This document shows, piece after piece, positions 28,273-30,296 of a stretch of 44,147 bases of DNA. The stretch spans positions 1 through 44,147 of the forward strand of contig JANQSV010000087.1 in the NCBI GenBank assembly GCA_028279115.1. Reading direction: 5' to 3'. The position numbers were made by a program, and so were the translations under genes. This DNA comes from Pseudomonadales bacterium. Lineage in GTDB: Bacteria; Pseudomonadota; Gammaproteobacteria; Pseudomonadales; Pseudohongiellaceae. The notes beneath the pieces are model-generated. The model searched no databases and was not told where the DNA came from. It saw only the letters and a list, made by a program, of their open reading frames with translations. Every line of letters begins with the position of its first letter. The stretch's first letter is position 1.

Positions 28273-28695
28273 ATGGACAAGATAGACTATTCAAAATTTC
28301 AATTATCCCTGAAACGTCTCGAAGAACAGTACGAGAATCACCGACACGCCGATACATCCCTCCCGGAAATTACCCGCGAAGGTATTGCGGAGTCTGTCAT
28401 TCAACGCTTCAAGACTTGTTACGATTGTCTTTGGAAAGTGCTGAAGCGGTATTTGATCGTGGAATTGGGAGTCGCGGACCCGCCCAACAGTCCCAAACCC
28501 GTGTTTCGTCTCGCACGTGAAAACCAAGTGCTTTCCAGCGCACTTGAGGAATGGTTCGGCTATGCGGAAGCCCGAACCAACACATCGCACGACTATGATG
28601 GTGAAAAAGCCAAAGCGTGTCTGGCTTTGACACCGAACTTCATCGCCGATGCAGTCGGACTTTACGAGACAATGACCGGCCAGTCGTGGCAATGA
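28273..28695 (+). CDS. HEPN-domain protein, HI0074-type nucleotidyltransferase substrate-binding family (putative RNase toxin)
   Basis: ATG 28273 with GGAGG 10 nt upstream. FQLSLKRLEE..., IQRFKTCYDCLWKVLKRYL and an intact Rx4H motif (RTNTSH, codons 28573-28590). Confidence 0.8.
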   Translation: MDKIDYSKFQLSLKRLEEQYENHRHADTSLPEITREGIAESVIQRFKTCYDCLWKVLKRYLIVELGVADPPNSPKPVFRLARENQVLSSALEEWFGYAEARTNTSHDYDGEKAKACLALTPNFIADAVGLYETMTGQSWQ

Positions 28696-30296
28696 CCCGA
28701 TCAATAGATCTTTCGGTTCGAGAACAGGAGATGGTTCGGAAATTGCTCGCGCGATTTCTCCCGAATACCGAAGCCTGGGTGTATGGCTCCCGCGTCCACT
28801 GGACCTCGCGCCCCGAATCGGATCTCGACATGGTTGTGTTCACAACGCCCGAGCAGGCTGGTGCGGTATCGAAACTTAGGGAGGCGTTCGACGAAAGCGA
28901 TCTGACGTTTCGTGTTGATCTTTTCGTTTGGGACAACGTGCCCCCAGAGTTTCGCCACGAAATCGAGCGGGAACATGTGGTGTTGGTTGAGTCGGCGACC
29001 TGCTCTAGAGGATGGAAGCAGCGCCAACAACTCGGCGACTGCATTTTAATGAACGAAGATACTTACTCGCCAAAGGAAAAATGGCCTTTCGTAAATTATC
29101 TTGAGACCGGAAACATCTCGGAAAACCGAATAGAGAAGATTTTGCACATTATCCCGGAGCGAGAAAAGCTGCCCAGTCGCGCCCGCCGCAAGGCCCGATC
29201 AGGAGGTGAAATAGTCTACTCAACAGTGCGCCCAAATCAGAGACACTTTGGCATATTGCGCGAAGTACCGGAGAACTTTCTTGCTTCTACAGAATTCGCC
29301 ATTTTTCGGGGTAAAGAGGCCATTGCGGACACTGGGTTTATCTACCGGTTTCTAATCCAGGACCATGTCGTTGAGCGACTTCATACTATCGCCGAGCACA
29401 GCACATCAGCCTACCCGTCAATCAGACCTGCGGATATCGAGCGTTTGGAGATTTCCCTACCGCCCGTCGCTGAACAACGCACCATCGCCAACATTCTCGG
29501 CAAACTTGATGACAAGATCGAGTTGAACCGCCAGATGAACGAAACGCTGGAGGCGATGGCACGAGCGATCTTCAAGGACTGGTTCGTCGATTTCGGTCCC
29601 ACCCGCGCCAAGTCCAAAGGTCTCGCTCCATACTTGACCCCCGAACTTTGGGACCTATTCCCCGACGCACTGGATGACGAAGATAAGCCGGTTGGATGGT
29701 CGTTAGCTGAGTTGACGGCAGTCGCCGACATCAATCCAGAATCTTGGTCCAGAATAAACTGCCCGGAAGAAGTTGAGTATGTGGACCTCGCGAACACAAA
29801 GTGGGGGACAATTGAGGCCACGCACCGATTCGATTGGCAACAAGCGCCAAGTCGGGCAAAACGCGTTCTTCGCCCCGGAGATACAATCGTAGGAATGGTT
29901 AGGCCCGGTAACGGGTCTTTTGCATTTATCGGCGTACCCGGCCTAACCGGAAGTACTGGATTTGCAGTTCTCAGACCGTTAGAAAATCGTCACAGTGAAG
30001 TGGTGTATCTCGCTGCGACTGATCCTGAAAACATCAAGCGCCTTGCTAATCTGGCTGATGGTGCGGCCTATCCGTCAGTTCGTCCTGAAGTCGTGGGAGC
30101 AACCGAGATCGCCGTGTCAGACGACGCGGTTATCGCCAGCTTTTCGGCACTTGTTTCGCCCTTGTTTGACCGTATGGAGACCAACAAAGTGGAGGAAAAC
30201 GCGCTTGTCCAGACCCGCGATTTCCTTCTGCCCAAACTAATTTCCGGTGAAATTCGCCTGAACCAAGCAAAGAAACTCGAGGAGCCAGCATCATGA
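28692..30296 (+). CDS. hsdS: In-frame fusion: MNT nucleotidyltransferase (HI0073-type, about 100 aa) plus full-length Type I specificity subunit HsdS
   Basis: ATG 28692 overlaps the HEPN stop (ATGA). The MNT motif is [18 protein letters not shown] (GSx10DxD) ... VDLFVWD. There is no stop before the HsdS-like [12 protein letters not shown]. HsdS central conserved region [42 protein letters not shown] and distal region [16 protein letters not shown] are both present. I checked the frame codon by codon across 28920-29050. Confidence 0.8.
   Translation: [534 protein letters not shown]

Follow-up and report, generated by a model that had tools for sequence, protein, structure and literature searches.

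An MNT-type nucleotidyltransferase fused in frame to the HsdS specificity subunit of a type I restriction-modification locus

Our analysis showed that, in the window (the whole stretch of DNA analysed, 44,147 nucleotides of contig JANQSV010000087.1 of a Pseudomonadales bacterium), a minimal nucleotidyltransferase (MNT) of the HI0073 type and the HsdS specificity subunit of a type I restriction-modification (R-M) system are encoded in a single ORF. The fusion is real and ancient, both of its halves are under purifying selection, and in the window's clade HsdS continues the MNT ORF and lacks a conserved separate start. The 534-aa product is probably a functional S subunit in a type I R-M methyltransferase, bearing a type VII antitoxin enzyme at its N-terminus. 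The fused gene, its parts and the gene before it are as follows:

28273-28695, + strand: candidate RNase toxin, a 140-aa HEPN protein of the HI0074 / NTase_sub_bind type (Pfam PF08780, 1.4e-20)
28617-30296, + strand: MNT::HsdS ORF, the open frame that holds ATG 28692
28692-28994, + strand: MNT domain of the HI0073 type, aa 1-101 (Pfam Polbeta; GS at 32-33, D44, D46, D76)
28995-29012, + strand: linker SATCSR, aa 102-107, the lone low-confidence stretch in the AF2 model
29013-30296, + strand: HsdS part, aa 108-534, with TRD1, central conserved helix, TRD2, C-terminal conserved helix and stop (PADLOC, Pfam, Foldseek)

Translation of the frame from ATG 28692 to the stop at 30294-30296 gives an uninterrupted MNT::HsdS protein of 534 aa. 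The preliminary description of this locus had proposed a complete HI0073-type MNT in frame with a complete HsdS, with no in-frame stop at the junction; ORF translation, Pfam and PADLOC bear this out, and the TAG within TCTAGA lies out of frame (+2) at 29006-29008. The initiating ATG shares an ATGA with the stop of the HEPN gene before it, and the N-terminus that it sets agrees with those of homologues (MNQAIDVT.., MTPAIDVT..). In the MNT domain the GSx10DxD motif is intact (aa 32-46 of the fusion) and the C-terminal end, ...EREHVVLVE, falls at about aa 101. Pfam assigns aa 28-101 to Polbeta PF18765 (36.1 bits, cut-off 26.9), while the sister family PF01909 stays below its threshold (20.1, cut-off 21). 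The domain matches HI0073 (1no5) in phmmer (2.6e-15), and Foldseek aligns its model with 1no5_A at a target-normalised TM of 0.90 (rmsd 1.4) and with the Legionella MNT antitoxin 8xeo_B at 0.83. The HsdS part, which starts at W108, matches Pfam Methylase_S PF01420; it returns 5ybb_D, 3okg, 7vru_C, 1yf2 and 2y7c in Foldseek, and aa 113-527 correspond to positions 8-401 of the 403 in the PADLOC Specificity_I profile, so that the S subunit is complete. An AF2 model of the fusion (pLDDT 90.6) has two folded modules, with long helices at 259-299 and 478-518 in the HsdS part; the fusion thus has what an HsdS requires, namely two TRDs with one conserved helical region between them and one after. Only residues 103-106, in the linker, fall below a pLDDT of 50 and are disordered.

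The rest of the locus is partly decayed, and comprises the following features:

26452-28008, + strand: hsdM, type I N6-adenine DNA methyltransferase subunit, 518 aa (Pfam N6_Mtase 2.3e-109, HsdM_N 4.6e-26)
28005-28256, + strand: conserved ORF of 83 aa, whose ATG overlaps the hsdM stop (ATGA)
30293-31243, + strand: DUF4357 protein, PADLOC candidate PDC-S14 (Pfam DUF4357 4.8e-16; PDC-S14 4.3e-121), whose ATG overlaps the hsdS stop
31504-32511, + strand: RhuM/Fic-DOC protein, PADLOC candidate PDC-S23/S05 (Virulence_RhuM 2e-24, Fic 2.5e-10; PDC-S23 7.3e-121)
32603-32803: 66-aa HTH fragment, abutting the hsdR remnant
32791-34161, + strand: hsdR remnant, the C-terminal ~456 aa only (Pfam T1R_D3-like and T1RH-like_C only)

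The order in the window is hsdM, the 83-aa ORF, HEPN and MNT::hsdS; hsdM, HEPN and MNT::hsdS are intact while hsdR has decayed. The hsdR remnant lacks the nuclease and the first helicase domain: the intact 1092-aa HsdR of locus L049 (84% identical) aligns with window positions 32791-34158 from its residue 636 on. Related loci and the Zymomonas plasmid described below have an intact hsdR. The hsdM product is 60-87% identical to those encoded upstream of the fused genes of loci L001-L080. The 83-aa ORF is located between hsdM and HEPN in 38 of 80 related loci (tblastn) and is also present in type I R-M loci that have no HEPN-MNT; it matches 152 database proteins of ~81 aa, and a search of the ORF and these matches found no Pfam, NCBIfam or PADLOC domain. 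Its AF2 model is poor (pLDDT 63.9).

The truncated hsdR gives some colour to the idea that two genes in a dying locus were joined through an indel in the assembly or a stop-loss of very recent date. An independent Logan assembly of SRR20820730 refutes this explanation and answers the question of assembly error raised in the preliminary description: its 534-aa protein does not differ from that of the window, nor does its gene order. Fused homologues that number in the hundreds (45-66% identical, motifs intact) refute it too. The dN/dS of 0.165 between the window and its closest relative, L001, also argues against it, and we give it practically no credence. Recurrence in independent genomes had been proposed as a check and is widespread: an N-terminal GSRx9-10DxD, marking a fused protein, is found in 104 of the 120 best protein matches, and the gene is fused at 65 of the best 80 of 342 loci confirmed in species-representative genomes. 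These 342 loci span at least 10 phyla, mostly as sponge-symbiont-type MAGs, and are a lower bound for the window's MNT clade only, the scan having used an alignment of 9 closer MNT sequences. Among the closest 150 MNT cluster representatives, 91 are of 450 aa or more and only 6 of 130 aa or less. Three of the top matches that looked like unfused HsdS (P0036, P0045 and P0076) were rejected as such, being N-terminally truncated gene calls that begin within the MNT.

The MNT half has been maintained along with the HsdS. Across 70 fused homologues G32, S33, D44 and D46 do not vary, and GSx10DxD is retained in 144 of the 150 representatives. The loci, nearly all of them from MAGs, were picked by MNT similarity, and broken MNTs are therefore under-sampled among them. 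The median dN/dS of the MNT in fused genes is 0.12 (966 pairs), indicating purifying selection. Fused genes combine the MNT with no fewer than 24 types of TRD1 (clusters), so that the fusion has outlived many swaps of specificity, and tandem MNT-MNT-HsdS forms exist. The architecture is also found in a cultured host, Zymomonas mobilis ATCC 10988, whose plasmid pZMOB01 carries an intact hsdM–HEPN–MNT::hsdS–hsdR locus.

A single ORF could still yield two proteins, with HsdS made also or mainly as a separate polypeptide through an internal start or by proteolysis of the linker, and MNT and HsdS acting apart as in the unfused Acetobacter operons described below. The preliminary description had raised the GTG/TTG codons at 28977-28985 as a possible separate start for HsdS. 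The codons are there: the window, like most homologues, has in-frame GTG/TTG codons where the MNT ends, and the linker is predicted to be flexible; initiation at them has no specific support. In the window the three codons (GTG, GTG and TTG at 28977, 28980 and 28983) encode V96, V97 and L98 in the conserved beta-strand that ends the MNT, which explains their presence, and a test of start codons and Shine-Dalgarno motifs at the linker is uninformative, as the VVLV codons are necessarily GTG or TTG. The linker itself varies in length and sequence among homologues, with no Met or other start codon conserved at a fixed position, and an in-frame ATG with a Shine-Dalgarno-like motif occurs in the linker of only 6 of 66 loci. 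A genuinely unfused HsdS (P0081) begins MGNWP.., equivalent to W108 of the fusion. A scan of the + strand near the junction found no promoter-like site, overall counts being at chance level, and gene callers predict one 534-aa product. Taken with these points, separate production of HsdS appears unlikely.

The gene immediately upstream provides the expected partner of an MNT. The 140-aa HEPN protein has PF08780 as its sole domain, its motif RTNTSHDY conforms to Rx4HxY, GGAGG lies 10 nt before its ATG, and HI0074 is its nearest solved structure (1jog, 3.4e-7). As judged from the sequence, the HEPN and MNT::hsdS genes are translationally coupled. In the characterised systems MntA polyadenylylates the Tyr of RX4HXY through its GSX10DXD motif, in a class that includes PF08780 HEPNs (PMC7641770). 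The Rx4-6HxY motif is kept in 59 of the 64 loci with a full HEPN upstream of the fused gene, and an intact Rx4-6HxY HEPN adjoins the fused gene at 51 of 66 loci. About 15 of the 66 have no intact HEPN and an apparently intact MNT; in L033 and L034, for example, HicAB replaces HEPN and GSx10DxD is retained. At L037, L072, L078 and L079, where HsdS is truncated and HEPN is intact, the MNT is retained; L032, the sole locus whose MNT is interrupted by a stop, has a HEPN that lost its catalytic His as well. The loss of HEPN with MNT::HsdS kept does occur, which matches the asymmetry expected of a toxin-antitoxin pair.

The loci with no intact HEPN indicate that the MNT may have another role, or may persist merely as the supplier of the HsdS start. 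A tethered MNT re-purposed to modify some other target near HsdS (HsdM, HsdR, DNA ends or a phage protein), and so to regulate restriction, would fit these ~15 of 66 loci, where HEPN is lost, degraded or replaced, as well as the motif's persistence in nearly all representatives. An intact and translationally coupled HEPN next to most fused genes speaks against such a role, as does the fact that the stand-alone relatives are ordinary HEPN-MNT pairs; no other conserved partner was seen, and we regard the explanation as very improbable.

The preliminary description had also stated that HEPN/MNT pairs occur between hsdM and hsdS elsewhere, and they do so, unfused, on Acetobacter plasmids. Acetobacter sp. 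AC2005 plas1 and A. pomorum pSH1 carry hsdM-HEPN-MNT-hsdS-hsdR, with the same gene order and protein families as here, in which a gene of its own encodes the MNT (101 aa) and hsdS starts from a separate ATG (MTDWQ.., MKKWP..); the two genes lie 2 nt apart or overlap by 8 nt. Stand-alone HEPN->MNT pairs also exist. L072 and L078, which are nearest to the window's clade, were rejected as stand-alone ancestors since the first HsdS residues persist after their MNT, making them truncated fusions. The likely origin of the fused gene would be the entry of a stand-alone HEPN->MNT pair between hsdM and hsdS, followed by loss of the small junction between MNT stop and hsdS start, with the unfused stage persisting on the Acetobacter plasmids. 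In a crude tree of MNT domains the fused forms interleave with stand-alone and unfused ones, which suggests several independent fusions. The Zymomonas fused MNT groups in this tree with HI0073 and the Acetobacter MNTs, apart from the sponge clade, and the pZMOB01 fusion is probably independent of that of the window.

The fusion might alternatively be a frozen accident. A small indel would have removed the MNT stop and hsdS start of abutting or overlapping genes, with neutral effect if the enzyme antitoxin works in either state, free or tethered, and an appendage at the N-terminus does no harm to HsdS; the cassette would then have spread by horizontal transfer, reversion needing both a new stop and a new start. 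Several observations are in keeping with this: given the spacing of the Acetobacter genes one small indel suffices, the few residues of the linker vary and are disordered, movement of the cassette among phyla is clear, and at least one locus (L069) has a separate MNT stop and hsdS ATG. Selection on HsdS alone accounts for the upkeep of the frame, from which it follows that an advantage of the fusion itself cannot be deduced. The interleaved tree, with the several independent fusions that it suggests, weighs on the other side, together with the strong dominance of the fused state within the window's clade and the elaborated tandem MNT-MNT-HsdS forms. We regard an accident of this kind as a possibility of some weight, if on the whole improbable.

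The reading that we favour, and hold to be the probable one, is that of a type VII HEPN/MNT pair inside a type I R-M operon whose antitoxin is made only as part of HsdS. By analogy with the characterised HepT/MntA systems, the MNT domain would use ATP to (oligo)AMPylate the Tyr of RTNTSHDY, and this modification would hold the HEPN RNase off. As the architecture implies, the antitoxin would share its synthesis, dose, location and turnover with the S subunit. If the hsdM-HEPN-MNT::hsdS operon were lost or silenced, or a phage interfered with S, newly made HEPN would stay unmodified, leading to RNA cleavage and growth arrest. The consequence would be to lock in the M+S core (addiction), and the module could double as a second line of defence like PrrC; we infer that its purpose is addiction, a PrrC-like backup, or both. 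A bolder reading makes MNT::HsdS an integrity sensor of the type I R-M complex: HEPN would be silenced only while HsdS is properly made and assembled, and anti-restriction would stop AMPylation and free HEPN. Candidate triggers would be Ocr/ArdA-type DNA mimics in the M2S1 DNA groove, proteolysis of the S subunit, host shut-off or a drain on ATP. Such a sensor would be a PrrC-EcoprrI with an enzyme as its antitoxin, having arisen independently on several occasions and being distributed over more than 10 phyla in dense host-associated communities. We put it forward tentatively and consider it rather doubtful.

The module shares with the type VII HepT/MntA systems of S. oneidensis (SO_3166/SO_3165), A. 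flos-aquae and L. pneumophila a GSX10DXD nucleotidyltransferase and a neighbouring RX4HXY HEPN, which here belongs to PF08780 and whose Tyr would be expected to be AMPylated. The nearest solved structures to both partners are those of H. influenzae HI0073/HI0074 (1no5, 1jog). Both partners score below the family thresholds, the MNT at 33.3 bits for NCBIfam MntA_antitoxin NF047752 (cut-off 60) and the HEPN at 45.6 for TIGR01987 (HI0074; cut-off 55.8). The usual MNT antitoxin is described in PMC7641770 and PMC3710099 as a small free-standing protein (<150 aa), commonly encoded 5' of its toxin, whereas here the MNT forms the N-terminal domain of a 534-aa HsdS, and thus not a free protein of that size, and the toxin gene comes first, with the MNT 3' of HEPN. 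According to PMC11586414, the S. oneidensis and A. flos-aquae MNTs have a long and important C-terminal helix; the MNT here lacks it, and HsdS is attached at exactly that end. MNTs are labile and stabilised by fusion (PMC13000451, PMC11586414). In FhepTA, the fused MNT-HEPN treated in PMC13000451, the MNT is likewise joined covalently to another protein, with altered stability. What it is joined to there is its toxin, whereas in the window the attachment is to a DNA-recognition subunit of unrelated kind, the toxin being a protein of its own.

The closest parallel in operon logic is PrrC-EcoprrI, an anticodon nuclease kept latent through a type Ic R-M enzyme, with which it associates physically, and set free by a phage anti-restriction factor. 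In both cases a HEPN RNase gene lies inside a type I hsd operon, and a suicide RNase is coupled to the state of the R-M system, here by proposal. PrrC combines an ABC-ATPase with its HEPN, is masked through contact between proteins and has no antitoxin enzyme, whereas the HEPN here is a minimal 140-aa protein with no N-terminal ABC-ATPase (Pfam), and its coupling to R-M would run via an enzymatic antitoxin carried covalently on HsdS. In the pZMOB01 locus, the architecture is as in the window, an HI0074-type HEPN (RRNLTSHTY) being followed by MNT::HsdS with intact hsdM and hsdR on either side; the MNT is 35% identical to that of the window, the linker is about 4 aa long, and the MNT falls in another branch of the family.

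In a non-exhaustive literature search that included a targeted reading of PMC3710099, PMC3632139, PMC2701414, PMC12839542, PMC13000451, PMC7641770 and PMC11586414, we found no description of an MNT-HsdS fusion. In Anantharaman et al. 2013 (PMC3710099), R-M-linked HEPN domains are fused to nucleases, helicases and ATPases, not to methylases, MNT-HsdS goes unmentioned, and HEPN fusions in immunity loci are reported only to nuclease or motor subunits; PMC3632139 describes HEPN toxins in immunity loci with no recognisable antitoxins. The preliminary description's remark that the architecture is not a described one therefore stands as far as this search of the literature goes and has to be qualified as regards the databases: the pZMOB01 fusion is already in RefSeq (WP_014466389.1, 527 aa) as 'restriction endonuclease subunit S', and the PADLOC Specificity_I HMM PDLC03138 itself bears an MNT at its N-terminus. 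The fusion is unnoticed rather than rare. Fused S subunits are annotated plainly as HsdS, and finders of defence systems and of toxin-antitoxin systems consequently miss the putative antitoxin.

The finding means that, across hundreds of species and no fewer than 24 specificities, a putative antitoxin is hard-wired to the single subunit common to the methylase and the restriction enzyme. It offers a testable link between the integrity of R-M and an RNase-based suicide or dormancy switch, for which Z. mobilis ATCC 10988 with its plasmid pZMOB01 is a culturable model, and a natural series of three stages, from the stand-alone pair through the unfused insert to the fused form. In strains that bear the fusion, the deletion of hsdS for better transformability could be toxic.

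Our analysis showed that the antitoxin-type minimal nucleotidyltransferase (MNT) of the window is fused in frame to a complete HsdS, the specificity subunit of type I restriction-modification (R-M) systems, as the preliminary description had proposed. By both the ORF list and the raw sequence, an uninterrupted ORF spans 28617..30296 (+), and its ATG at 28692, which overlaps the stop codon of the upstream HEPN gene (ATGA) and agrees with the N-termini of homologues, opens 534 aa without a stop. The GSx10DxD motif (residues 32-46) and the MNT C-terminal end ...EREHVVLVE (at about residue 101) were both correctly read in that description, and Pfam places Polbeta (PF18765) at residues 28-101, followed by Methylase_S. 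A six-residue linker, SATCSR, leads from the MNT into 11 residues that correspond to the extreme N-terminus of ordinary HsdS (the genuine unfused relative P0081, a database protein, begins MGNWP). The PADLOC profiles for type I specificity subunits are covered by residues 113-527 at positions 8-401 of 403; the S subunit is therefore complete, and by domain content the fusion is a bona fide HsdS. The AF2 model, for which 70 fused homologues were used, reaches pLDDT 90.6 and consists of two well-folded modules, with residues 103-106 alone below 50 pLDDT. Foldseek matched the N-terminal part to HI0073 (1no5_A; TM 0.90 normalised to target, rmsd 1.4) and to the MNT antitoxins 8xeo, 8xeh, 7bxo and 6m6v, and the C-terminal part to the HsdS structures 5ybb_D, 3okg, 7vru_C, 1yf2 and 2y7c.

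The fusion is real and widespread. An assembly artefact or a fresh stop-loss is ruled out by an independent Logan assembly of run SRR20820730, in which an 8.8-kb contig encodes the identical 534-aa protein among the same neighbour genes, truncated hsdR included, and by the recurrence of fused homologues in independent genomes, a check that the preliminary description had proposed. A search of 5.8 billion proteins gave more than 100 matches of 500-560 aa with both Pfam domains, about 99% coverage and 45-66% identity, and GSRx9-10DxD lies near the N-terminus in 104 of the 120 best matches. Three matches that looked like unfused HsdS (P0036, P0045, P0076) were rejected, their gene calls starting inside the MNT. 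Scanning one genome per GTDB species with the MNT alignment confirmed 342 loci, a sample biased by its choice on MNT similarity; among the 80 best, the MNT frame continues at least 430 aa into HsdS in 65. Finally, 1.84 billion cluster representatives were searched exhaustively by HMMER with just the MNT domain, giving 719 matches at E<=1e-10. The best 150 comprise 91 of at least 450 aa, 53 of intermediate length, many of them probably cut by contig ends, and only six of at most 130 aa; almost all carry the MNT at the N-terminus.

The fused gene lies in the following gene order, assigned chiefly from Pfam, PADLOC and structure comparison:

25149-25732, + strand: HigB/HigA pair, at the island boundary
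26452-28008, + strand: hsdM (methyltransferase subunit), intact
28005-28256, + strand: conserved 83-aa ORF, ATGA overlap with the hsdM stop
28273-28695, + strand: HEPN, a candidate RNase toxin of 140 aa (PF08780; nearest structure HI0074/1jog), with RTNTSHDY as Rx4HxY and GGAGG 10 nt upstream
28692-30296, + strand: MNT::hsdS, ATGA overlap with the HEPN stop
30293-31243, + strand: DUF4357 protein (PADLOC phage defence candidate PDC-S14), ATGA overlap with the hsdS stop
31504-32511, + strand: RhuM/Fic-DOC protein (PADLOC phage defence candidate PDC-S23/S05)
32791-34161, + strand: hsdR (restriction subunit) remnant, C-terminal ~456 aa
34318-34898, - strand: a different HigB/HigA pair in opposite orientation, at the island boundary

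In most of its 1-kb bins this island (about 25.1-34.9 kb, ~9.7 kb) has a GC content of 52-58%, and the bins flanking it, out to 38 kb, have about 60-66%. The intact 1092-aa HsdR of the scan locus L049, 84% identical, aligns to the window from residue 636 on only; restriction is thus dead in this genome, with M, HEPN and MNT::S intact, and the system is predicted to be capable of methylation at most. A 66-aa HTH (XRE-like) gene fragment abuts the hsdR remnant (together 32603-34161, +), and it looks as if a single deletion took ~635 codons from the start of hsdR together with the 3' part of an XRE/ImmA-type gene. Both phage defence candidates sit between hsdS and this remnant, and hsdM is closely preceded upstream by a staphylococcal-nuclease homologue (25748-26422). 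The 83-aa ORF recurs between hsdM and HEPN in 38 of 80 related loci and is present, too, where type I R-M loci lack HEPN-MNT; it matches 152 database proteins of ~81 aa with an invariant 10-residue core, has no match in Pfam, NCBIfam or PADLOC, and gave an AF2 model of poor quality.

Both halves of the fusion are under selection, with HsdS apparently dependent on the MNT start. G32, S33, D44 and D46 are invariant across the 70 fused homologues, and the median dN/dS for the MNT core is 0.12 in fused genes (966 pairs; 0.165 between the window and its closest relative, L001). The 66 fused genes (65 loci and the window) fall into 24 clusters of the first target-recognition domain (TRD1), and L001 differs from the window in TRD1 while its HEPN and MNT are 96% and 86% identical; the fusion has thus outlasted many specificity swaps. 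The in-frame GTG/GTG/TTG codons at 28977-28985 noted earlier are present in the raw sequence, where they encode V96, V97 and L98, and the TAG within TCTAGA (29006-29008) belongs to another frame, as originally read. The linkers of fused homologues vary in length and sequence and share no conserved Met or start codon. Read most simply, the sequences make the fused polypeptide itself the S subunit of the cell; a separate HsdS may also be made, by internal initiation or cleavage.

Relatives in three arrangements were found by a protein search of PLSDB plasmids. Stand-alone HEPN->MNT pairs overlap by 4 nt in Zymomonas mobilis (pZA1001, pZZ6.01) and Gemmobacter fulvus, and a further pair, in Legionella adelaidensis, by 11 nt. 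HEPN/MNT pairs between hsdM and hsdS, previously stated to occur elsewhere, do so unfused (hsdM-HEPN-MNT-hsdS-hsdR) on plasmids of Acetobacter sp. AC2005 and A. pomorum, where the MNT stop and hsdS start overlap by 8 nt or lie 2 nt apart. A fully intact fused operon is carried by pZMOB01 of the cultured Z. mobilis ATCC 10988:

30878-32470: hsdM
3-392: HEPN, RRNLTSHTY
389-1972: MNT::hsdS (WP_014466389.1, 527 aa), annotated merely as 'restriction endonuclease subunit S'
1969-5154: hsdR

Stand-alone pair, unfused insert and fused operon line up as three apparent stages of an evolutionary series. In a crude NJ tree of the ~100-aa MNT domains, drawn without support values, fused MNTs interleave with unfused and stand-alone ones, and the Zymomonas fused MNT groups with HI0073, Acetobacter and other Zymomonas MNTs outside the window's clade, which hints at several independent fusions. 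Elaborations also occur: tandem MNT-MNT-HsdS proteins of ~620-690 aa with two Pfam Polbeta stretches (P0097, P0093, P0110, P0111, P0049; locus L020); DUF559, a Vsr-like endonuclease domain, placed in frame within the conserved centre of MNT::HsdS (P0050, P0079, P0101, P0114; 750-840 aa) or out of frame (L036, L070, ~6990-7300); and, in L029 (5956-11628), a 1890-codon stop-free frame in which MNT::HsdS reads on into a further 1259 aa lacking any Pfam match, perhaps a giant fusion, perhaps the outcome of a lost stop. In Nitrospira sponge-symbiont contigs (L090-L093, 3253-5004), a 583-aa Schlafen/AlbA_2 + HATPase_c_4 gene, another accessory gene of the cassette, lies between hsdM and the conserved 81-aa ORF.

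The window's MNT clade consists almost only of MAGs from taxa typical of marine sponge microbiomes (Acidobacteriota, Alpha-, Gamma- and Zetaproteobacteria, Latescibacterota, Longimicrobiales, Opitutales, Rhodothermales, Nitrospirota, Nitrospinota, Binatia, Actinomycetota, Tectimicrobiota, Thermodesulfobacteriota), and some contigs bear Robbins-2021 sponge metagenome names. L001-L080, whose MNTs share 56-86% identity with that of the window, place the cassette in more than 10 phyla. The Robbins-2021 study reports that sponge symbionts show an enrichment of R-M and toxin-antitoxin genes and exchange them laterally (PMC8163846). The distribution suggests intense cross-phylum transfer within this habitat.

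Architecture, conservation, motifs and coupling to HEPN are established by the sequences; by analogy, the locus would work like a type VII HEPN/MNT toxin-antitoxin pair inside a type I R-M operon. According to PMC7641770, the GSX10DXD enzyme of HepT/MntA, a class that includes PF08780 HEPNs, attaches AMPs taken from ATP to the RX4HXY Tyr, and the RNase is blocked. The window pair has the motifs and neighbourhood that define Class I HEPN/MNT, although both proteins score below the curated cut-offs of NCBIfam for MntA and HI0074, and its MNT departs from the usual antitoxin, which is small, free and encoded 5' of the toxin. In related loci the HEPN end meets the MNT start with hsdM upstream; Rx4-6HxY is kept in 59 of 64 full-length HEPNs, and an intact such HEPN adjoins 51 of 66 fused genes. 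Where HsdS is truncated and HEPN intact, the MNT is retained (L037, L072, L078, L079), and in L032, the only locus whose MNT is interrupted by a stop, the catalytic His of HEPN is gone as well. The reverse, loss of HEPN with MNT::HsdS kept, is common (L028, L051, L062, L075), and a HicA/HicB pair replaces HEPN immediately ahead of MNT::hsdS in L033/L034 (~5527-5956); in L028 and L062, HEPN is reduced to N- and C-terminal scraps. In the window, hsdR has decayed and the HEPN-locked M+S core has not. These patterns fit a toxin-antitoxin relationship.

MNT antitoxins are described as labile (PMC11586414) and as stabilised by fusion to a partner (PMC13000451). If the antitoxin is present only as part of HsdS, its supply would be tied to S-subunit expression and survival, and operon loss or interference with S would leave newly made HEPN unmodified and active. 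The benefit may be addiction, or an abortive-infection backup of similar logic to PrrC-EcoprrI, the anticodon nuclease held latent by a type Ic R-M enzyme; the window system is not a PrrC relative, since its HEPN is without the ABC-ATPase domain. Alternatively, the fusion may be a frozen accident of no benefit, as selection on HsdS alone explains maintenance of the frame.

The MNT-HsdS fusion is apparently undescribed; its components belong to two well-known systems. The preliminary description did not recognise the architecture as a described one, and a non-exhaustive literature search found no paper describing it; the fusion is nonetheless already in RefSeq and in one PADLOC HMM (Specificity_I, PDLC03138), whose positions 2-119 align to the MNT. 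A large HEPN survey (PMC3710099) lists R-M-linked HEPNs fused to nucleases, helicases and ATPases, not methylases, and makes no mention of MNT-HsdS; a defence-system survey (PMC3632139) describes immunity loci that encode toxins, apparently without antitoxins. The fusion ties the integrity of an R-M system to an RNase toxin cleanly and in a testable way, and a culturable model and natural unfused controls exist.
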